Positions 5,648-52,812 of a stretch of 64,000 nt of DNA are shown in pieces. The stretch's first letter is position 1. Every line of letters begins with the position of its first letter. Source of the DNA: Escherichia coli (GTDB lineage Bacteria > Pseudomonadota > Gammaproteobacteria > Enterobacterales > Enterobacteriaceae); the NCBI RefSeq assembly GCF_009931435.1, contig NZ_CP043414.1, one strand, 5' to 3'. Below the pieces are notes generated by a model. That model was not told the origin of the DNA. It did not search any database and saw only the letters and a program-made list of their open reading frames with translations. Position numbers and translations under genes: made by a program.

Positions 5648-6670
5648 TTAAACCTCTGTAGAGCGGTTTCCGCTGGGTGAGTTATGCCTGTTGAAAAAAT
5701 CAACAATGGCGTGGAGCGCGACTGAGCGCATTGCGTCCTTTTCAAAAAGGATCTCATGGTACGCACCTTTAATTACCAGCGGTCGTCCCCCTTCGACAGG
5801 ATGGCCCGCAGCGGTGCGGAGTTCACAAAAACGGTCGTGCATGCGGTTATCCACCACGCGTTCCTCTTCAGCCTGCAAGAGAAGCGTTGGCGTGGCGTCA
5901 TCACCCGCACCGGCTAACACCTGTTCGCCAGCCAGAATACTTTCGCGTACCCAATGGTAGGTCGGCCCACCGACGCGAATCGTTGGGTCATCAGCATAGA
6001 AGCGTAAGTTACGTCGATATCGCTGTCTGCTGTGGGTCAGTACGTTGATAGCAAACGGCAACGCGCGCCAGCGCCCGGTGCCTATTGCATAGCCATCACG
6101 GAAACGTGGATGTGCTTCGGCCCAGTTAAGGAGCTGCCGCGCCATAAATGACGGCATACGAATCACGATCCCAAACATTGGCGCAGTTAGCGCAATGGCG
6201 TCACATACACCTGGATGGCGTTGCAGAAATAACGTGGAGATCGCACCGCCCATCGAATGTGCCAGTATATAGCGCTTACGCCACGGACCGGGCTGGACCT
6301 CCTGTTGCCAGAATGCCGCCAGATCATCAACATAATCATTAAAGCGATTAACATGCCCAAGATGCGGATCGGCTAACAGGCGACCGGAACGTCCCTGCCC
6401 GCGATGGTCGATGATTAAGACATCAAACCCCAAATGGAACAGGTCGTAGGCCAGTTCCGCATATTTTACGTAGCTCTCAATACGCCCCGGGCAGATGACT
6501 ATCACCCGGTCATGGTGCTGTGCGCGAAAACGGACAAAGCGCACCGGAATGTCATCTACACCAGTAAACTCTGCTTCATCACGCTGACGCCAGAAATCAG
6601 TCAGCGGTCCCATGGTAAAAGCAGCAAACGCGTTTTCTCTTGTTTCCCAGTCTTTTTGCTGCTGAAACAT
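5648..6670 (-). CDS. pldB: lysophospholipase L2
   Basis: 340 aa alpha/beta hydrolase with HSMGG nucleophile elbow; conserved position upstream of yigL. Confidence 0.93.
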   Translation of the reverse strand: MFQQQKDWETRENAFAAFTMGPLTDFWRQRDEAEFTGVDDIPVRFVRFRAQHHDRVIVICPGRIESYVKYAELAYDLFHLGFDVLIIDHRGQGRSGRLLADPHLGHVNRFNDYVDDLAAFWQQEVQPGPWRKRYILAHSMGGAISTLFLQRHPGVCDAIALTAPMFGIVIRMPSFMARQLLNWAEAHPRFRDGYAIGTGRWRALPFAINVLTHSRQRYRRNLRFYADDPTIRVGGPTYHWVRESILAGEQVLAGAGDDATPTLLLQAEEERVVDNRMHDRFCELRTAAGHPVEGGRPLVIKGAYHEILFEKDAMRSVALHAIVDFFNRHNSPSGNRSTEV

Positions 6671-6780
6671 CGGGTAATCTGCCTCTTAAACCACGTAAAA
6701 TCGTTTTTTTAAGCGTGTCTGACACAACGCTGCGACAGTAGCGTATTGTGGCACAAAAATAGACACACCGGGAGTTCATC

Positions 6781-7401
6781 ATGACCTTAGAATGGTGGTT
6801 TGCCTACCTGCTAACATCAATCATTTTAAGCCTGTCGCCAGGCTCTGGTGCAATCAACACCATGACCACCTCGCTCAACCACGGTTATCGTGGTGCGATG
6901 GCGTCTATTGCTGGGCTTCAGACCGGACTGGCGATTCATATTGTGCTGGTTGGTGTGGGGTTGGGTACGCTATTTTCCCGCTCAGTGATTGCGTTTGAAG
7001 TGTTGAAGTGGGCAGGAGCAGCTTATTTGATTTGGCTGGGTATCCAGCAGTGGCGTGCTGCTGGCGCAATTGATCTTAAATCGCTGGCCTCAACCCAATC
7101 GCGCCGACATTTGTTCCAACGCGCAGTGTTTGTGAATCTCACCAATCCCAAAAGTATTGTGTTTCTGGCAGCACTTTTTCCACAATTCATCATGCCGCAA
7201 CAGCCGCAAGTTATGCAGTATGTAGTGCTCGGCGTCACCACCATTGTGGTCGATATTATTGTGATGATCGGTTACGCCACCCTCGCCCAACGGATCGCGT
7301 TATGGATAAAAGGGCCGAAACAGATGAAGGCATTGAATAAGATTTTCGGCTCGTTGTTTATGCTGGTGGGAGCGCTGTTAGCATCGGCGAGACATGCGTG
7401 A
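6781..7401 (+). CDS. rhtB: LysE/RhtB-family homoserine/homoserine lactone exporter
   Basis: 206 aa membrane protein, N-terminus [28 protein letters not shown]. Confidence 0.93.
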
Positions 7402-7408
7402 AAAATAA

Positions 7409-7440
7409 TGTCGGATGCGGCGTAAACGCCTTATCCGACT
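7409..7440. repeat. REP (repetitive extragenic palindrome) unit
   Basis: tgtcggatgcggcgtaaacgccttatccgact between the convergent rhtB and rhtC genes. Confidence 0.6.
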
Positions 7441-7462
7441 TACTCTGATGACGCGTCTGGCA

Positions 7463-8083
7463 TCAACGCGAAATAATCAAATGAATACCAAATCCGGCAA
7501 ATAACGCCCCGGCAAAACCATCAATCCACTTCGCCAGACGTTGATAACCACGGCGCATTTGCGGCAGGGCAAACAGGCTGGCAACGACGGTAAACCACGC
7601 CAGTGTTTCGATAATAATCAACGCGAAAATGCCCCAGCGCTCAGTAGTGCCGACGTTATCGCCGACAAACAGCGAGAATACCGAACCAAAGTAGATAATC
7701 GCTTTCGGATTGGCGAGATTGGTCAGTAAGCCTTTCAGGAAACTGCGCCCGCTTTTTGCCAGTTCTACCTGTGGCGCAGGCGCAGAAACGACCTCTTTTT
7801 TCAGTGCGCTACGCAGCATCTGATAACCCATCCAGCAGAGATACAGGCCACCGCCCACCATAATCAGCGTATGCAGCCAGGCCATTTTTTCGATAATCAA
7901 ATGCAGGCCAAGCAACGCGATCCCTGCCCAGACCATTACGCCGCAGGTAATGCCCAGCACGCCCATCATCGCTTCTTTGCGCGAACGGCTAACGGCAGTC
8001 TGGGAGACAAAAAAGAAATCGGGACCGGGGCTCATAAGCGCCACAATGTGCACCATGGCGACGGTGAGGAATAACATCAACAT
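7463..8083 (-). CDS. rhtC: LysE/RhtB-family threonine exporter
   Basis: 206 aa paralog of RhtB, N-terminus MLMLFLTVAMVHIVALMSPGPDFFFV. Confidence 0.93.
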   Translation of the reverse strand: MLMLFLTVAMVHIVALMSPGPDFFFVSQTAVSRSRKEAMMGVLGITCGVMVWAGIALLGLHLIIEKMAWLHTLIMVGGGLYLCWMGYQMLRSALKKEVVSAPAPQVELAKSGRSFLKGLLTNLANPKAIIYFGSVFSLFVGDNVGTTERWGIFALIIIETLAWFTVVASLFALPQMRRGYQRLAKWIDGFAGALFAGFGIHLIISR

Positions 8084-8146
8084 ACAATTGACTCGCGGGG
8101 AAATCGTTTACGGAGTCTTCATCCTGGCACTTTTTTATGCTGCTGA

Positions 8147-9976
8147 CTACTCTTCGTCATCGCCATCGACATGCGCACGAATCAGCGCCATAAACGGTTT
8201 GCCAAAGCGTTCCAGCTTGCGCATCCCAACGCCGTTAACGCTGAGCATTTCGCTGGCGGTGATTGGCATCTGTTCCGCCATCTCAATCAAGGTCGCGTCG
8301 TTAAACACCACGTACGGCGGGACATTGCTTTCATCGGCAATCGATTTACGCAGTTTGCGTAATTTGGCGAACAGTTTGCGATCGTAATTGCCACCGAACG
8401 ATTTCTGCATCGCTTTCGGTTTGAGCGCCACAATACGCGGCACGGCAAGTTGTAAAGAGGATTCGCCGCGCAACACCGGGCGTGCGGCTTCTGTCAGTTG
8501 TAATGCCGAATGCTGGGCGATGTTTTGCGTCACCAGACCGAGATGAATCAACTGGCGGATTACGCTCACCCAGTGCTCATGACTTTTATCGCGGCCCATG
8601 CCGTAGACTTTCAGTTTGTCATGACCATAGTCGCGGATTCGCTGGTTATTCGCACCGCGAATCACTTCCACTACATAGCCCATACCAAAACGCTGATTCA
8701 CACGACCAATGGTGGAAAGCGCAATCTGCGCATCGGTTGAACCATCGTACTGTTTTGGCGGATCGAGACAGATATCGCAGTTCCCGCACGGCTCCTGCCG
8801 CCCTTCGCCAAAGTAATTCAGCAGCACCAGACGACGACAGGTTTGCGCCTCAGCAAACGCGCCCATCGCATTGAGTTTATGACGTTCGATATCCTGCAAC
8901 TGCCCCTGCGGTTTTTCTTCCAGGCAACGGCGCAGCCACGCCATATCGGCCGGATCGTAAAACAGCATCGCTTCCGCGGGCAGGCCATCACGCCCGGCGC
9001 GACCGGTTTCCTGATAATAGGATTCGATATTGCGTGGAATATCAAAGTGAACCACGAAGCGGACGTTAGGCTTGTTGATGCCCATGCCGAACGCTACCGT
9101 CGCCACCACAATTTGCAGGTCATCGCGCTGGAATTTTTCCTGCACGTCCGCACGGACATCGTTTTCAAGCCCGGCGTGATAAGCCGCTGCGCTGATACCC
9201 TTGCTTTGCAGACGCGCGGCGGTGTCTTCTACTTTCGCACGACTATTACAGTAAATAATCCCCGACTTACCGCGTTGTTCCTGCACGTAGCGCATCAGCT
9301 GATCGAGAGGTTTGAACTTCTCCATCAGCATGTAGCGAATATTCGGACGGTCAAAACTGCTGATTTGAATCAGCGGATCGTTCAGCCCCAGCAGGCGCAC
9401 GATATCCTGCCGCGTGGTGTCGTCGGCGGTGGCAGTCAGCGCCATAAACGGCAGCGTCGGAAAACGCTGACGCAGCTGACCGAGGGCAGCGTATTCCGGG
9501 CGGAAATCGTGGCCCCATTGGGAGATACAGTGCGCTTCATCAACGGCTAATAACACCGGATTCCAGTGCGCCAGATGCTCAAGGAAGTTATCCAGCATCA
9601 GGCGTTCCGGCGCGATATACAGCAGGCGGATTTGCCCGGTGCGGCAGCCTGTCATTACTTCAAGCTGCTGCTCGCGGGTTTGCGTCGAGTTAAGGCACGC
9701 CGCCGCCACGCCGTTGGCCTGTAGCTGATCCACCTGATCTTTCATCAACGAAATCAGTGGTGAAACAACCACGGTAAGACCGTTTAGCAGTAAGGCAGGA
9801 ATTTGATAGCAAAGGGATTTTCCGCCACCAGTGGGCATGACGACCAGGCAATCGCGACCGGAAAGTACGGTGTCGATAATCTCTTCCTGGCCGGGGCGAA
9901 ACTGTTGGTAGCCAAAGGTTTCTTGTAAAACCTGTTTAGCCCCGGACTCCAGATTCAACACTTCCGCCTGCGCCAC
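8147..9976 (-). CDS. recQ: ATP-dependent DNA helicase RecQ
   Basis: 609 aa; Walker [13 protein letters not shown] box ([15 protein letters not shown]), zinc-binding Cys cluster, HRDC C-terminus. Confidence 0.96.
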
Positions 9977-11660: not shown

Positions 11661-12551
11661 ATGGACACCAAACAAACGCGGCAGGGCGTATTACTCGCTC
11701 TTGCCGCTTATTTTATTTGGGGTATTGCGCCAGCGTACTTCAAGCTGATTTACTACGTGCCCGCCGATGAGATCCTGACGCATCGCGTGATCTGGTCGTT
11801 TTTCTTTATGGTGGTGCTGATGAGCATTTGCCGCCAGTGGTCCTATTTAAAAACGCTGATTCAGACACCAAAGAAAATCTTCATGCTGGCCGTCTCTGCC
11901 GTGCTGATTGGTGGCAACTGGCTACTGTTTATCTGGGCGGTGAACAATCACCATATGCTGGAAGCGAGCCTTGGTTACTTTATTAACCCGCTGGTGAACA
12001 TTGTGCTGGGGATGATTTTCCTCGGCGAGCGATTCCGCCGGATGCAATGGCTGGCGGTGATTCTGGCGATATGTGGTGTATTGGTCCAGCTCTGGACTTT
12101 TGGTTCGCTGCCAATCATCGCGCTGGGGCTGGCGTTTAGTTTTGCCTTCTACGGCCTGGTACGCAAGAAAATTGCCGTTGAAGCGCAAACCGGCATGTTA
12201 ATCGAAACCATGTGGCTGCTGCCCGTGGCGGCGATTTACCTGTTTGCTATTGCCGACAGCTCAACCAGCCATATGGGGCAAAACCCGATGTCGCTGAATT
12301 TACTGCTGATCGCCGCCGGTATTGTCACCACCGTGCCACTGTTATGTTTTACCGCAGCAGCTACACGCTTACGACTCTCAACATTAGGCTTTTTCCAGTA
12401 CATTGGGCCGACGCTAATGTTCCTGTTGGCAGTGACGTTTTATGGTGAAAAACCGGGAGCCGATAAGATGGTGACTTTCGCCTTTATTTGGGTAGCGCTG
12501 GCAATTTTTGTGATGGATGCGATTTATACGCAGCGTAGAACGTCCAAATAA
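11661..12551 (+). CDS. rarD: EamA/DMT-family transporter RarD
   Basis: Start trimmed to ATG at 11661 (MDTKQTRQGVLLALAAYFIWG); about 10 predicted TM segments. Confidence 0.9.
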   Translation: MDTKQTRQGVLLALAAYFIWGIAPAYFKLIYYVPADEILTHRVIWSFFFMVVLMSICRQWSYLKTLIQTPKKIFMLAVSAVLIGGNWLLFIWAVNNHHMLEASLGYFINPLVNIVLGMIFLGERFRRMQWLAVILAICGVLVQLWTFGSLPIIALGLAFSFAFYGLVRKKIAVEAQTGMLIETMWLLPVAAIYLFAIADSSTSHMGQNPMSLNLLLIAAGIVTTVPLLCFTAAATRLRLSTLGFFQYIGPTLMFLLAVTFYGEKPGADKMVTFAFIWVALAIFVMDAIYTQRRTSK

Positions 12552-12854
12552 ATATATTCTGAAAAAATATGCCTGCTCTTGCATGAGAGTGGGCATATTG
12601 TCATGCTGACAGGATACTCACATAAGGAAAGGCAGAATTTCCAGACGTCGTTGTATATTTTCATTTGCTTTAATAAATTCCATTTTTGGTAAATTCAGCA
12701 TTATGTTATTAGCGATGAGCAAGACCAATCATTAACCAAGTTCTCTTCAGAATGTAATGAAAAATGTGAAGTGCATTTCTTTTTTAAAAATTTTTTACCC
12801 TATTATTTCTTATCAAATTAACATTGCCCTTAATTATAAGAAAGGAGAATATAA

Positions 12855-13703
12855 ATGAACAACATATTAGGCTCATCAATTAATATGCCCTGTACACTTT
12901 TCGAAACTATTACTTTATTCGATGATTTCTCTGCTGATGATATGCAGTATGGGGATATGGAAGAACAAGATTTTCTCTCACTCGGCTTAAGCGACATCTC
13001 TGCAAAAGTTGATCCTTACCGCCTCATTAAATACCATTTTCCTGGGCCGAATTCTACTTATGGTGCTTTTAGTATTCCAACTTCTGGAACAAAAATATCA
13101 CAAAGTGAATGTATTGATATTTTATTTGCAGAAATGAAAGATCTGGCAAAAATGTTTTCCTTTTTTGGACAATACAAAACACTCATCCAGGATCTGATTG
13201 ATCATTTTAGATATGGAAATGGCAACAGTTTCCATAGCCAGGAATTGAACTTATCTTTTCATGAACGAATAAACAAATATGATTATAATAGCCCAATACG
13301 TGTAATCAAAGAATGTATCGAAAATGATATTTCTTCAACACCTACGATAGGATACCGGCCTCTTCTCCTACAAAAGATTAAGACCGAATTACTTTCATCA
13401 AGACTAAATAAATTCAATGATTTTAAAGATAATTTTAATGGCCTGGGAATCAGCATTCATGATATCTCAGCTCAAAAAATATCTCTTTTAAATTTTCAAA
13501 AATATCCTATGGGCTGGAGCGCTACCATTCATTTCATAGCACAAGACCACTTTGGTTTGGATGTGACTGATATAAAAAACAAGATTTACAACAAGTATAG
13601 ATTTTTTCGCATATGGTTCTTTTTACAACGGCATAAAGACTTTGCTTTCAAACCTTTTTTTACCAATTTTAACACTATCGAAAGAATCGAAAATTATCTA
13701 TGA
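12855..13703 (+). CDS. hypothetical protein (282 aa), accessory; no family recognised
   Basis: Strong SD aaggag 7 nt upstream of ATG; no signal peptide; acidic N-terminal region; AT-rich codon usage (about 35-38 % GC in sampled 60-mers versus about 50 % in flanking core genes); stop overlaps the next gene's ATG (ATGA). Confidence 0.65.
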   Translation: MNNILGSSINMPCTLFETITLFDDFSADDMQYGDMEEQDFLSLGLSDISAKVDPYRLIKYHFPGPNSTYGAFSIPTSGTKISQSECIDILFAEMKDLAKMFSFFGQYKTLIQDLIDHFRYGNGNSFHSQELNLSFHERINKYDYNSPIRVIKECIENDISSTPTIGYRPLLLQKIKTELLSSRLNKFNDFKDNFNGLGISIHDISAQKISLLNFQKYPMGWSATIHFIAQDHFGLDVTDIKNKIYNKYRFFRIWFFLQRHKDFAFKPFFTNFNTIERIENYL

Positions 13704-14197
13704 AAAGCAAACTCCAGAAAATTATATTATATTTATTTCTTCTATGCTGCATCTATAATTTATGGACATTGCGTCCTGTACAGATTTTGTATACATACTC
13801 TGATGCTGGCAATTCAGTCTTTCTGGTCGTTGATCATCTGCCATGGACTGATAGCGATAAAATAAATTGGTATCTGAAGCATCAGGATGAAATTAAAAGT
13901 CAAAATCCCCTACCAGAAGGTAGTTGGCATACCTGGTATGTTATTGATATCGGTAATGGCTTCACTGACTATAAAAAATATATCGAAGGGCCGTATGAAG
14001 ATCTCTACTGTTTCCCGACGATTAAGAGCAATGATAATTGCATCGTAAAAAACTATTTAATGGTTATTAATGAATATCCTTACCGTAATACTCATTTTTT
14101 TATTGCTGATAACAATGAGTATCAACTAACCCAGGAAAATAAGATAGAGCGAGTGTTCAACCCGCATGACTTTGAAAAAGACAATTTTCAGCAATAA
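13700..14197 (+). CDS. hypothetical membrane-anchored protein (165 aa), accessory
   Basis: ATG overlaps upstream stop (translational coupling). N-terminus MKSKLQKIILYLFLLCCIYNLWTL is a basic N-region plus one hydrophobic helix (signal peptide or signal anchor); the rest is a Trp/Tyr-rich soluble domain; AT-rich. Confidence 0.6.
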   Translation: MKSKLQKIILYLFLLCCIYNLWTLRPVQILYTYSDAGNSVFLVVDHLPWTDSDKINWYLKHQDEIKSQNPLPEGSWHTWYVIDIGNGFTDYKKYIEGPYEDLYCFPTIKSNDNCIVKNYLMVINEYPYRNTHFFIADNNEYQLTQENKIERVFNPHDFEKDNFQQ

Positions 14198-14232
14198 GCC
14201 GGATAAAGAACAATCTTTACCCGGCATTTATA

Positions 14233-31789: not shown

Positions 31790-31998
31790 ATAAAAAAACG
31801 CCTGCTCTTATTACGGAGCAGGCGTTAAAACAGGTCTGTATGACAACAAGTGGGTGCTTCACTCAACGTTGTGTCCATGGTGTCTGATGAGGCATAAGCG
31901 ACATCTGTCAGTGGACGATAAGCACCGTAAACGGCTCTGCGTCATTCCGGAGTTTATGAGGCACTAAGGCGAACATAAGAGATGGAATGAGCATCTAC
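31790..31998 (-). ncRNA. glmZ: GlmZ small regulatory RNA
   Basis: Minus strand reads GUAGAUGCUCAUUCCAUCUCUUAUGUUCGCCUUAGUGCC ... ending in hairpin AAGAGCAGGCGUUUUUUU, matching the remembered GlmZ sequence; located between hemY and aslA as in K-12. Confidence 0.8.
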
Positions 31999-35631: not shown

Positions 35632-35708
35632 TGGTCGGCGAGAGAGGATTCGAACCTCCGACCCACTGGTCCCAAACCAGTTGCGCTACCAAGCTGCGCT
35701 ACTCGCCG
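35632..35708 (-). tRNA. proM: tRNA-Pro (anticodon UGG)
   Basis: Reverse complement gives CGGCGAGUAGCGCAGCUUGG...GGUCGGAGGUUCGAAUCCUCUCUCGCCGACCA with cloverleaf and CCA end. Confidence 0.9.
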
Positions 35709-35750
35709 AAATACTGCTTTTTGAATTTTTAGTTCAATTCTTTAAAGTCG

Positions 35751-35837
35751 TGGTGCGAGGGGGGGGACTTGAACCCCCACGTCCGTAAGGACACTAACAC
35801 CTGAAGCTAGCGCGTCTACCAATTCCGCCACCTTCGC
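35751..35837 (-). tRNA. leuT: tRNA-Leu (anticodon CAG)
   Basis: 87-nt class II tRNA; reverse complement begins GCGAAGGUGGCGGAAUUGGUAGACGCG and ends ...CCUCGCACCA. Confidence 0.9.
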
Positions 35838-35857
35838 ATTGTCACAACTTCTAATAA

Positions 35858-35934
35858 TGGGGTGGCTAATGGGATTCGAACCCACGACAACTGGAATCAC
35901 AATCCAGGGCTCTACCAACTGAGCTATAGCCACC
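35858..35934 (-). tRNA. hisR: tRNA-His (anticodon GUG)
   Basis: Reverse complement GGUGGCUAUAGCUCAGUUGGUAGAGCCCUGGAUUGUGAUUCC...GCCACCCCA, with the extra 5' G typical of tRNA-His. Confidence 0.9.
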
Positions 35935-35991
35935 ACTACAAATCTTGTTACGCGGTATTACTACCACCGCAGCTCAAGCGCCGGGACTAAA

Positions 35992-36068
<77 letters not shown>

Positions 36069-38489: not shown

Positions 38490-39842
38490 TTATCCTTCAA
38501 CCTGCGTCCGGAGCGATGATTTTGTACGTTTATGAATGAGTCCGGCGCTTTCAAAAAGCCAGTACAACAGTTTTGCGATCATCAGACATGCGCCGAAGAC
38601 CACGATAAAAAAGACCACACGTGAGACAAACGAATCCAGCCCTTCACGCGCCAGTACGATCATATTGAAGATCGCCCCGAAGCAGAAACTGTGCAATATC
38701 GCAGCCTTATAGCGATTAGTTTCGCGATTGCCCAGTTCATACAGCCAGTCGAACCATTTGATGATCAGTCCAACCACAATCGCCCCGAGCGGGATGAACA
38801 ACGCGCCGCCCATAACAACCAGTGAGCCTATAAGCGTAGGCGAGATCGCCAGCCCGGAGTGGTTATTCAGCACTTCCCAGGTAAAGTAGTTGGCGGAGTT
38901 CAGTACCATACTCGGGCGACCCGGCCACAGCCAGGAAGGGATAAAGACATAGAAATCGCGGACAATGGGAGCCAGGCCCTGGAAGTCGATGTTGTCGTAG
39001 TTCTGCAACAGCAATGCCAGATTCTCCCACGGCGAAAAGGTATCGCGGGTGAGATAGAGAAACGTATAGAACGCTTCATCGCCGCTCACATTCATTCCAT
39101 AGCGTTTTAGCGCCAGCCAGAACATGCCCACAATCCCCAGCACGCCCGCCGCCGCCAGCATCCACAACGAAATCCAGCCGCGAATAATGCCAATAAACAG
39201 GAAGATAGCAAATGCGATGATAATATTGGCGCGAGTGCCGCCGACAATCATGTAAGTCAGCAAGCCAAAGGCGACCGTGCTGGCGAGGAAAAACAGCCAC
39301 GCTTTGCTGTCCTGGCGCAGAAAGTAGACCACCAGCATCGCCGGGATGAAAAAGTAAAAGAAACGTTTTAACGCCACGCCGGAGACTTCACTGGAGAAGA
39401 TCTGACTGTAGGAGTTAAGACGGAACAGCAAAAAACCGTTGTGCATGAAGAAGATGCCGACGCTTACCAACGCAATGCCCATCAGGATCACCCACGTGAG
39501 ATTGGTCTCCACGCGGTTCATGGTAAACAGCGGACGGCGCGGTACATCAGCAACGCGTTTGCGTAGGCGGGTTTTGTAGGTGACATAGTAAACCGCGTAG
39601 AAGCAGCCCGCAGAAAGCAACGCCTGCAACAAGATTTCTGGCGGCGCAACACCAACATCAAAGCGAAATACCAGCACGCTGGTCAGCGGGAAGCCGAAGA
39701 AAAAGGTGAGCAAAAACAGCAATGAAAAGAAGACATTGAAGTTAAAGCGCACACGGCGAAACTCAAACCAGGTCAGCGTGGCAATAAACAGCGTGCAGAG
39801 CAGCCAGACAACAAACAGGCCACTGAATTGCAGCAGACTCAT
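38490..39842 (-). CDS. wzyE: ECA polysaccharide polymerase
   Basis: 450 aa polytopic membrane protein at the conserved position between wecG and wecF. Confidence 0.93.
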
Positions 39843-40918
39843 GCGACCTCCCCGGCGGCAATCGCCAACGCCCGCTGCCAGCCTTGTAGAAAGTTAGGGC
39901 TAAAGAAGGCAATGGTGTTTTTATCCACCGACGCCAGCTGGCGCTGTGCTTCACGCACAATATCCTCGTTGAGATCGTCGGTAGTAAACAGCACCGGCAA
40001 ATGCTGTTCCGTCATATCCTGCCAGAACGGATTTTCCCGGTTAAGCACACAAGGAATGCCCGCCTGAATCAGCAAGCACAGCGTACCAATGCCCTGCTGG
40101 CGGGCAAAAATAAAGTAACCGAGATCGCACTGACGAAGTAGCGCCAGATAGGCATCAAATTCCAGTTTTTCGCTCAGAACTTGCAGATTTTCTTCGCTGA
40201 ATAACGCCAGCCCCGCCTGGCGAACTTCATTGATATATGCATCGTTATTGGGTGGATATCCCATCGGCACCACGACTTTTACCGTATTGCCAAATTGCTG
40301 ATGAACGGCGCGTAAGGCGGCGACATGCTCATTGCTGCGGTCACCGGAGTTCCCCACCAGAATGGTCATTTTCCCTTCACGTTGGCGATCGTTCGCCATC
40401 GTATTGAGAGAAGGGTCCATCCGCGTCGGGAAGTACAGCAGTTCGCCCCGCACCTTTGGATGCGTTTTGGCAAAAAAACTCAAATCACCGCGGGTGGCAA
40501 ATACACAGCCGACTCGCTTTTGCGCCAGACGGCGCAGCGGATAAAAAAGCTTATATCTCAAGCCACTGGAAAGCTCATACAGGTCTGCCCCCCAGATATG
40601 CCAGTAAAACTGGCTGGGCTTAATGCCACCACTCAGCAGAGCTAGCCACAGTTTGGGATTGAACTGACCGTGGAAGAAAAATCGCTGCTGACGGTTAGCT
40701 TTTGCTTTCGCGATGACCGCTTCCGCCAGCGATTTTTTCCCAGGGAAAAATTGCACAGAAAGCGCCGGACAGCTATCACTTAAGCCGTCGTCCTTGCCAA
40801 CAACCATAAACTCGCGCGCGTGCTCGCTCGTCGCGGCCAGCGCGTCGTTGAAAAACCGCAGAACGGTTCGGTTATGGTGAGGGATATCCGATCCCAGTAC
40901 GTGAATCAGTACAGTCAT
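39839..40918 (-). CDS. wecF: TDP-N-acetylfucosamine:lipid II N-acetylfucosaminyltransferase
   Basis: 359 aa; 4-nt overlaps with both wzxE and wzyE. Confidence 0.93.
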
Positions 40919-45921: not shown

Positions 45922-47183
45922 TAGCGCCAGACTCCTTTGGCATCGACGACATACTGCTGATGGACGTTGTCGCCATTGATAACTTTGAACTGACTATGAT
46001 CGACCAACATCACCAGCACATCTGCCGTTGCCAGCGCCTCGTCAAGCTGCGCCAGAGTACAAAGCCCATTCAGTTTGTTCGGCAACTGGTGAATGTTAGG
46101 CTCAACAACCAGCGTTTCGCCGCTGTGCCACTGAGCGATCAATTCAGCGATTTCCATCGCCGGACTTTCGCGCAGGTCATCAATATTCGGTTTAAACGCC
46201 AGACCAAAACAGGCAATTTTCAGCTCACTGGCGCGTTTATCGGTAGCGGCCAGGCAGTCGGCAACCGCCGCTTTGACCTGATCAATCACCCAGAACGGTT
46301 TGTGATCGTTCACTTCACGCGCGGTACGGATAAGCCGCGCCTGCTGCGGATTCTGTGCCACGATAAACCACGGATCAACAGCGATGCAGTGGCCGCCCAC
46401 GCCTGGGCCAGGCTGAAGAATATTGACGCGTGGGTGGCGATTCGCCAGGCGAATCAGTTCCCAGACGTTAATCCCCTGATCGGCACAAATCAGCGACAAT
46501 TCATTAGCAAAAGCGATATTCACATCGCGGAAGCTGTTTTCGGTGAGCTTACACATTTCCGCCGTTCGCGAGTTAGTGACGACACACTCACCTTCGAGGA
46601 AAATTTTGTACAGTTCGCTGGCACGGGCCGAACAAACCGGCGTCATACCACCAATCACGCGATCGTTTTTAATCAGCTCGACCATAACCTGGCCCGGTAA
46701 CACGCGTTCCGGGCAGTAAGCAATGTTGACGTCCGCCTGCTCGCCCACCTGCTGTGGGAAAGTCAGGTCCGGACGCATCTCTGCTAACCATTCTGCCATC
46801 TTCTCGGTTGACCCCACCGGCGAGGTGGATTCAAGGATCACCAGCGCGCCTTTTTTCAGCACTGGCGCAATGGAGCGAGCAGCCGATTCAACGTAAGCCA
46901 TATCAGGCTCATGATCGCCTTTAAACGGCGTGGGTACAGCAATCAGCCAGGCATCCGCTTCAACCGGCGTCGTGCTCGCTCGTAAAAAACCGCCTTCTAC
47001 GGCAGTTTTTACTACGCTCGCCAAATCAGGCTCGACGATATGGATTTCGCCACGATTGATGGTATCAACCGCGTGTTGGTTGATATCAACACCAATCACC
47101 TGTTTTTGCCGGGAGGCAAACGCTGCCGCCGTTGGCAGTCCAATGTAACCCAGTCCAATGACAGAAATGGTCGCAAAACTCAT
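45921..47183 (-). CDS. wecC: UDP-N-acetyl-D-mannosamine dehydrogenase
   Basis: 420 aa, [23 protein letters not shown] (UDP-sugar dehydrogenase NAD-binding motif). Confidence 0.95.
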
Positions 47184-52352: not shown

Positions 52353-52682
52353 TTACGCCAGGTTAGCGTCGAGGAACTCTTTCAACTGACCTTTAGACAG
52401 TGCGCCCACTTTGGTTGCCGCCACTTCACCGTTTTTGAACAGCAGCAGAGTCGGGATACCACGGATGCCATATTTCGGCGCAGTGCCAGGGTTTTGATCG
52501 ATGTTCAGTTTTGCAACGGTCAGTTTGCCCTGATATTCGTCAGCGATTTCATCCAGAATCGGGGCGATCATTTTGCACGGACCGCACCACTCTGCCCAGA
52601 AATCAACGAGGATCGCCCCGTCCGCTTTGAGTACATCCGTGTCAAAACTGTCGTCAGTCAGGTGAATAATTTTATCGCTCAT
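52353..52682 (-). CDS. trxA: thioredoxin 1
   Basis: Start trimmed to ATG at 52682 ([39 protein letters not shown]), 109 aa with WCGPC active site. Confidence 0.97.
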
Positions 52683-52812
52683 ATATAACTCCACAGGAAT
52701 AAGCCTGGCGTGTTGGTTTCGTTGTTGGTGTAACATTAACCAACTAAAGGTTGACTTTATTTCACCGGATACGCTTTCGTAAAGCAATAGTAAGCTGATA
52801 TTCTACCACACT

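Follow-up and report, generated by a model that had tools for sequence, protein, structure and literature searches.

Within a 64,000-nucleotide stretch of the Escherichia coli chromosome (contig NZ_CP043414.1 of RefSeq assembly GCF_009931435.1; hereafter the window), two genes, designated A and B, lie side by side between rarD and corA. The pair probably constitutes an orphan antibacterial effector–immunity module, in which A is delivered by a type VI secretion system (T6SS) and B is anchored in the membrane with its domain facing the periplasm. The system itself is already known: the pair is the E. coli copy of the published DUF3289 effector with its DUF943 periplasmic immunity protein, present as an orphan cassette by corA. 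What is added here is modest and consists of a paired match to the BtpeA/BtpiA complex, an invariant cysteine pair in DUF943, a gene overlap kept across genera, the history of the cassette at the 3' end of corA, and figures for co-occurrence with T6SS genes. No new question is opened, because the family function, the immunity topology and the crystal structure of a homologous complex have already been published. T6SS delivery in E. coli, the biochemical target, the binding of A by B and the actual coupling of their translation are what we infer.

Families and relatives of A and B

A search of A against Pfam revealed a match to DUF3289 (PF11692; 8e-83), and NCBIfam TIGR03034, the YPO3983 family, was matched with 396 bits (6.7e-119; cut-off 156). 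Every invariant column of the DUF3289 family is kept in the window copy. The N-terminus of A contains no signal-like hydrophobic stretch, the best Kyte-Doolittle window being 1.17. B matched Pfam DUF943 (PF06092, 'enterobacterial putative membrane protein') with an E value of 3e-27 over residues 3-152, corresponding to positions 2-150 of the 151-position model, and had no match in NCBIfam. RefSeq names the two genes 'YPO3983 family' and 'DUF943 family' in CFT073, Nissle 1917, ATCC 25922, O157:H7 and E. coli B. PADLOC and PHROGs returned no match for A or B, and an origin of the pair in phages or anti-phage defence was rejected on these empty searches. The features of the island are listed in Table 1.

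Table 1. Features of the island between rarD and corA (positions in the window)
Feature	Position	Strand	Basis or remark
AT-rich leader, left island edge	12629..12854	+	GC falls to 0.28-0.32
Shine-Dalgarno sequence of A, GAAAGGAGA	12840..12848	+	anti-Shine-Dalgarno duplex -8.7 kcal/mol, 6 nt from ATG
Gene A, 282 aa, DUF3289 / YPO3983 family, putative periplasm-acting antibacterial effector	12855..13703	+	Pfam, TIGR03034, PDB profile, Foldseek
ATGA stop/start overlap of A and B	13700..13703	+	read directly; overlap kept at 15/15 A-B junctions
Gene B, 165 aa, DUF943, putative cognate immunity protein	13700..14197	+	Pfam match
Codons of B residues 8-24 (IILYLFLLCCIYNLWTL), predicted signal-anchor transmembrane helix	13721..13771	+	hydropathy, flanking charge, modelled helix 2-23
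Conserved pair Cys104 (14009-14011) to Cys114 (14039-14041) of B	14009..14041	+	82-sequence alignment, model strands
Hairpin, 12-bp stem	14198..14225	.	between convergent stops of B (14197) and corA (14233)

The AlphaFold2 model of A (predicted local distance difference test score, pLDDT, 77) had a single significant match in the PDB, chain A of entry 9jdi (Foldseek E value 6.9e-9). This chain is BtpeA-CTD, from the Bacteroides fragilis T6SS effector BtpeA, of which the C-terminal domain was crystallised together with the immunity protein BtpiA. When a sequence profile built from A was run against the PDB, it likewise retrieved 9jdi ('DUF3289 family protein') and 9jg8 at 4.8e-6, with the motifs DHFGLD, WF.LQ and KPF aligned; all three are intact in the window copy. 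For the model of B, the best match was the BtpiA chain of the same complex. This paired match to both chains, which rests on predicted models, is new here. BtpiA was picked up neither by the DUF943 sequence profile nor by Foldseek, and the sequence profile of B gave nothing meaningful against the PDB. Between E. coli and the Bacteroides structures (9jdi, 9jg8 and 9jg9; released 2025), the effectors share just 20% and the immunity proteins 10% sequence identity, and BtpeA, unlike the 282-aa A, is a protein of 608 aa belonging to the spike complex of a Bacteroidota T6SS.

Colicin M attacks a peptidoglycan precursor in the periplasm, and its immunity protein Cmi has an N-terminal hydrophobic tether and a periplasmic domain. 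The colicin M/Cmi pair is thus like A/B in joining a periplasmic toxin to an immunity protein that is tethered to the inner membrane and exposes its domain to the periplasm. A comparison of folds showed no similarity of B to Cmi.

A PAAR-fused DUF3289 protein in a T6SS operon of Yersinia pseudotuberculosis was the starting point of Geller et al. (2024, Mol Syst Biol, PMC11148199). E. coli cells in which the Yersinia DUF3289 toxin is targeted to the periplasm are poisoned and become round, and they are rescued by the DUF943 protein encoded downstream; a model of the toxin is similar to PaeM (4G76), a colicin M-like bacteriocin, and the DUF943 protein T6IC1 is predicted to have residues 1-6 inside, a transmembrane helix at 7-26 and a periplasmic part at 27-157 (PMC11148199). 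T6EC1 and T6IC1 of strain IP32881 resemble A and B in belonging to the same Pfam families and in their order, with the toxin gene first and the immunity gene directly downstream. T6IC1 and B are also alike in their predicted topology, a short basic N-terminus inside, one transmembrane helix and the remainder periplasmic, and T6EC1, like A, has no signal peptide; T6EC1 acts in the periplasm. However, T6EC1 makes up the C-terminal domain in a specialised PAAR protein whose gene lies within a T6SS operon, whereas A is a stand-alone protein of 282 aa with no delivery domain. Unlike T6EC1 and T6IC1, A and B are encoded at a distance from all T6SS genes, their place being between rarD and corA.

In Aeromonas jandaei, secretion of an orphan DUF3289 protein depends on the T6SS, and the protein kills prey lacking the pair (PLoS Biol 2025, PMC12135965). 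This effector of strain DSM 7311 (WP_042032936.1) is like A in being encoded outside T6SS clusters with an immunity gene directly downstream; its immunity protein is unlike B, with 95 aa, a signal peptide as well as three transmembrane helices, and is unrelated to DUF943. A survey of Klebsiella linked DUF3289 and DUF943 780 times in T6SS loci. Elsewhere, DUF3289 forms the toxic C-terminal part of orphan effectors of the PIX class in Enterobacterales, and in Enterobacter it is found beside VgrG. The pairs Tae/Tsi, Tge/Tgi and Tle/Tli share with A/B a bicistronic arrangement of a signal-less effector and an exported immunity protein, and orphan immunity genes are common among them, but their folds and enzymatic activities are unrelated. 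The first-pass annotation had likened the arrangement of A and B to exported-immunity systems, and this likeness holds: it matches the published DUF3289/DUF943 pair, and A and B match the chains of a T6SS effector–immunity complex.

Topology of B and its junction with A

The N-terminus of B, MKSKLQK, carries three lysines (K2, K4 and K7) and no acidic residue, and is followed by IILYLFLLCCIYNLWTL and then R25. The first-pass annotation had described three lysines and an 18-residue hydrophobic stretch; the lysines are as described, and the stretch is 17 residues long. The net charge is +3 on the N-terminal flank and about 0 over the 15 residues after the hydrophobic run. The best 19-residue Kyte-Doolittle window, at residues 8-26, is 1.59, and no further hydrophobic segment was detected in B by hydropathy. 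The AlphaFold model shows one continuous helix at residues 2-23 with a pLDDT above 93. The same layout is found throughout the family. An exhaustive profile search among 1.84 billion proteins yielded 162 DUF943 representatives at 50% identity, 110 of them full-length, and a word-indexed homologue search for B reached 30 close relatives. An N-terminal 17-residue window with a Kyte-Doolittle value of at least 1.6 is present in 99 of the 110 full-length representatives (median start at residue 7), and 89 of the 110 carry more positive charge on the N-terminal than on the C-terminal flank of it. A second hydrophobic segment was seen in 3/110 and a lipobox-like string in 9/110.

Because the string YNLWTLRPV, right after the hydrophobic core, is among the best kept parts in the closer (enterobacterial) homologues, and because no small-residue -3/-1 cleavage site follows the h-region of B, the N-terminal sequence argues for an uncleaved anchor. 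It appears quite improbable that B instead loses its N-terminal segment by cleavage and is a soluble protein of the periplasm or a lipoprotein. The N-terminus is indeed laid out as the n-region and h-region of a signal peptide, with Cys16-Cys17 inside, but a discarded signal peptide would not be expected to carry so strongly conserved a string at its end, the modelled helix is continuous, and the published prediction for the Yersinia homologue is a transmembrane helix. Lipidation through Cys16-Cys17 was rejected, this pair being replaced by SG, AG, GG or GA in homologues and lipobox-like strings being rare among the representatives. Under either the anchored or the cleaved reading, the domain of B would be periplasmic.

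In an alignment of 82 DUF943 sequences with a mean column identity of 25%, Cys104 and Cys114 are the only invariant columns. They fall in the model strands 102-104 and 114-116, which are adjacent in sequence, and a periplasmic disulfide across a beta-hairpin is probable. Such a disulfide fits an oxidising, periplasmic location. The earlier claim that B is membrane-anchored and faces the periplasm therefore agrees with the published topology of a DUF943 homologue, the family-wide anchor, the invariant cysteine pair and the Pfam family.

At the junction (13686-13730), A ends with ATC GAA AAT TAT CTA TGA and B opens with ATG AAA AGC AAA CTC CAG AAA. The first-pass annotation had noted that the ATG of B overlaps the TGA of A and that B has no strong Shine-Dalgarno (SD) sequence of its own. 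Both points were confirmed, since the best anti-SD duplex 5' of B reaches only -0.9 kcal/mol (TCGAAAGA, 14 nt from the ATG) vs -8.7 kcal/mol for A. Its further conclusion, a fixed stoichiometry of A and B, is not implied by the overlap; nor is it needed functionally, because the producer would keep its own toxin in the cytoplasm, and the toxin that B guards against would enter the periplasm by injection. Short overlaps of 4 nt or 1 nt occur elsewhere in the window (for example at 39839-39842, 40915-40918, 47180-47183 and 62972). A single 4-nt overlap is ordinary operon architecture, but the conservation of the A-B overlap exceeds chance. At all junctions with a DUF3289 gene or fragment directly 5' of a DUF943 gene, the overlap is 4 nt (ATGA) or 1 nt (TGATG/TAATG). 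These 15 junctions come from the window and 13 further loci of seven genera (Escherichia, Salmonella arizonae and diarizonae, Atlantibacter, Trabulsiella, Huaxiibacter, Lelliottia and Leclercia), with protein identity of 27-60% between some loci; the 13 loci are all from Enterobacteriaceae and from a narrower alignment, and the junctions of the most divergent DUF943 members lie outside this sample. The strength of the SD sequence before B varies across loci from -0.9 kcal/mol in E. coli to -6.4 kcal/mol in Trabulsiella. The absence of an SD sequence is local to E. coli, whereas the overlap is general.

On these sequence features, translational coupling of B to A is likely. Two observations weigh against an obligatory coupling. 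The start region of B is A-rich and essentially unstructured (minimum free energy -2.1 kcal/mol over 71 nt, z 0.79). In addition, Escherichia whittamii (locus L003 in our numbering of the fetched loci, 6020-7498) carries an intact orphan B, 80% identical, behind genes resembling yigG and yigF; it is accompanied by neither a DUF3289 gene nor an SD sequence nor an overlapping upstream open reading frame (ORF). The E. whittamii gene is probably an orphan immunity gene, and it shows that B can exist without coupling. Because of the unstructured start region and this orphan, SD-independent initiation on B is possible. Hence B might be made by independent initiation without an SD sequence, the ATGA overlap being mere compact packing of an operon. 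We regard this as a tentative and somewhat unlikely alternative. It is also favored by the usable SD-like sequences at the 3' end of A in other genera and by the frequency of four-base overlaps in the window. However, the overlap was kept at every junction despite the low protein identity between some loci, and there is no SD sequence before B in E. coli; moreover, coupling and independent initiation are not mutually exclusive.

Type VI secretion and competing explanations

In the mechanism that we propose, A would be made without a signal peptide and would be harmless in the cytoplasm of its producer. It would most likely be loaded onto a T6SS whose genes lie elsewhere in the genome, and injection into neighboring cells would bring it to their periplasm, where it would damage the cell wall; a colicin M-like attack on a peptidoglycan precursor has been proposed for the family. 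B would be inserted in the inner membrane by its uncleaved N-terminal signal anchor, N-in, and would expose to the periplasm a compact alpha/beta domain, probably stabilised by a disulfide, that could bind and block A arriving from sister cells. The two genes would be co-transcribed, and ribosomes ending A could re-initiate on B through the ATGA overlap with no SD sequence, so that immunity would be made whenever the toxin is made.

We determined the co-occurrence of the pair with T6SS genes in complete E. coli genomes using concatenated megablast queries and inclusion–exclusion, counting any megablast match. The coding region of the pair was found in 2647 of 5426 genomes (~49%), always on the chromosome and essentially in single copy, with two main allele groups at >=95% and ~88% identity. 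The sheath genes tssBC, of one or both of the types searched, were present in 3448 genomes; the union with the pair was 3962, giving 2133 genomes with both. Thus, tssBC was found in 81% of the pair carriers vs 47% of the non-carriers (odds ratio 4.6), a figure that is not corrected for phylogeny and covers two of the three E. coli T6SS types. The association was weak when only the metV-type T6SS was counted (odds ratio 1.2); it became clear after the aspV-type marker was added. As single cases, CFT073, in which the pair is 99.4% identical, has a T6SS cluster by the metV tRNAs, and O157 Sakai has the pair together with another T6SS type at aspV. The tssF gene of CFT073 is annotated as frameshifted (L016 39165-40923; NC_004431.1 3244164-3245922), and the apparatus of this strain may be inactive despite an intact DUF3289/DUF943 pair.

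These co-occurrence figures, uncorrected for phylogeny, support a functional link of the pair to T6SS. A is homologous to a validated T6SS effector, BtpeA-CTD (9jdi), and shares its Pfam family with the T6SS-secreted Aeromonas effector, and the gene directly 3' of it is homologous to a known immunity protein. The pair belongs to the 'orphan' class of effector–immunity pairs, a recognised class that is unlinked to T6SS genes. Several findings nevertheless weigh against T6SS delivery or a colicin M-like activity. No T6SS gene was found within 7 kb of the pair in the 13 fetched loci or anywhere in the 64-kb window. The delivery domains PAAR, VgrG, Hcp, PIX and WHIX were not found on A, whose Pfam match is DUF3289 alone over residues 10-278. 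Neither tssBC marker was present in 514 carriers (19%). The similarity of A to colicin M-like structures is weak: PaeM 4g76 (E 0.027, TM-score 0.24) and 4g75 rank second and third, with E values of 0.027-0.09 and TM-scores of 0.23-0.24, and no match to ColM was found in sequence and profile searches. Finally, the AT-rich island (32% GC) may be silenced.

These findings bear on an alternative in which the pair is a toxin–immunity system that works independently of T6SS in this lineage, with B kept for defence against the DUF3289 toxins of competitors and A silent, decaying or released by lysis or vesicles. The carriers without sheath markers and the lack of linked T6SS genes would fit this explanation, as would the toxin-less orphan DUF943 genes that are intact in E. 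whittamii, Trabulsiella and others, the frameshifted A beside an intact B in S. diarizonae, the IS1 element inside the pair in KE51 and the annotated frameshift in tssF of CFT073. We nevertheless consider it unlikely, given that A is intact in the window with all invariant family residues and in most loci with a conserved overlap, that the secretion of an orphan DUF3289 effector by a T6SS has a precedent, and that carriers are enriched for T6SS sheath genes. A related and distinctly doubtful proposal extends the paired structural match. Because A and B match both B. fragilis chains though the DUF943 and BtpiA sequences are dissimilar, the DUF3289 toxin and its immunity protein might be an ancient, co-inherited module across Bacteroidota and Proteobacteria, surviving in E. 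coli at the corA 3' end as a mobile cassette. In about one-fifth of the carriers, which lack T6SS sheath genes, it would then serve a purpose independent of T6SS, with B acting purely in defence or A having an endogenous function in the envelope. It is very improbable that the pair is a housekeeping envelope enzyme with a membrane regulator and has no part in toxicity and immunity. The fixed chromosomal site amid housekeeping genes would suit such a function, and the E. coli proteins are known from their sequences; however, just 49% of the complete E. coli genomes carry the pair, its GC content is 32% against a background of ~52%, there are at least two different insertion sites across genera as well as arrays with orphan immunity genes and toxin fragments, and homologues are experimentally toxic.

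With T6SS delivery as the preferred explanation, the analysis provides a clean annotation: in about half of the complete E. coli genomes, the site by corA holds a probable T6SS effector aimed at the cell wall, together with its immunity gene. Carriers include CFT073, Nissle 1917, O157:H7 and E. coli B, which is relevant to strain competition in the gut. Derivatives of E. coli B that serve as hosts or prey in T6SS assays probably already carry a DUF943 gene. E. coli B-StaR (L001) carries an intact pair, and BL21, a derivative of E. coli B, is the host in which the Yersinia DUF3289 protein is toxic without its own immunity protein (PMC11148199). If BL21 retains the pair, its endogenous DUF943 protein is not cross-protective, which would imply allele-specific immunity.

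The corA locus and the history of the cassette

At this site, the pair is flanked by recQ, pldA, yigI and rarD on the left and by corA, yigE and uvrD on the right, and the 64-kb window is otherwise typical E. coli chromosome. A stretch of 1.6 kb between the stop codons of rarD (12551) and corA (14233) has ~32% GC vs ~52% in the flanks and is the sole strong compositional anomaly in the window. It contains two ORFs, A and B, both on the plus strand. Homology with E. coli genomes lacking the island ends at about 12628. Using blastn of window positions 12500-12900 against the E. coli B locus (L001), we found that 12637-12688 is a 52-bp remnant of the yigG 5' region and that from 12688 on the leader matches what in E. 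coli B lies 3' of a corA fragment. The plus strand of the leader showed no consensus sigma-70 promoter. A consensus promoter scan, which is uninformative in DNA this AT-rich, gave 7 sites vs 9.5 in shuffled sequence and revealed neither an operon promoter nor one internal to A for B. A terminator-like site was called on the minus strand at the hairpin, which is likely a shared or bidirectional terminator of B and corA.

In E. coli B, the order is rarD, yigG, yigF, a duplicate of the corA 3' end, A, B and corA. The duplicate (147 bp, 92% identical; L001 2409-2555) separates yigF from the DUF3289 gene and resembles a scar left by insertion of the cassette at the end of corA. Duplicates or fragments were also located at L002 1125-1268 and L007 5429-5692, and Atlantibacter has a duplicated rarD 3' fragment as well. 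Because the window form has lost yigF and the corA fragment and retains just the 52 bp of yigG, it can be regarded as a deletion derivative.

In Trabulsiella, Huaxiibacter, Lelliottia and Leclercia (L006, L008-L011, L013 and L014), the cassette occupies a second recurrent site other than rarD-corA, the flanks of which we take to be fadH and lsrK from the N-termini of their ORFs, names that no tool confirmed. Arrays of 2-4 DUF943 paralogues occur at L009 5040-9619, at L006 5750-7707, and in L010 and L011 at 7001-8250. Some of these DUF943 genes are preceded by DUF3289 fragments of 63 to 103 aa, the 63-aa ones being C-terminal, which still overlap the next DUF943 start. By analogy, the arrays recall Rhs, contact-dependent inhibition (CDI) and polymorphic toxin loci, with their displaced toxin tips and orphan immunity modules. 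Intact orphan DUF943 genes without a toxin were found in E. whittamii, Trabulsiella and others, and in S. diarizonae (L005) A is frameshifted and B is intact. In KE51 (NZ_CP141080.1 196370-198840), an IS1 transposase is annotated within the span of the YPO3983-family and DUF943 genes, and the cassette is disrupted.

Two minor observations concern the sequences around the cassette. The Rfam matches in the window were GlmZ small RNA, a four-tRNA cluster and the trxA 5' untranslated region thermometer (31792-31998, 35635-36068 and 52653-52752), all expected for the region. A 5.3-kb contig from a bin labelled 'uncultured Alistipes sp.' (L002; CASFSC010000051.1) carries the cassette together with rarD, corA, yigE and uvrD at 96-100% protein identity to E. 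coli, and is almost certainly mis-binned Escherichia.

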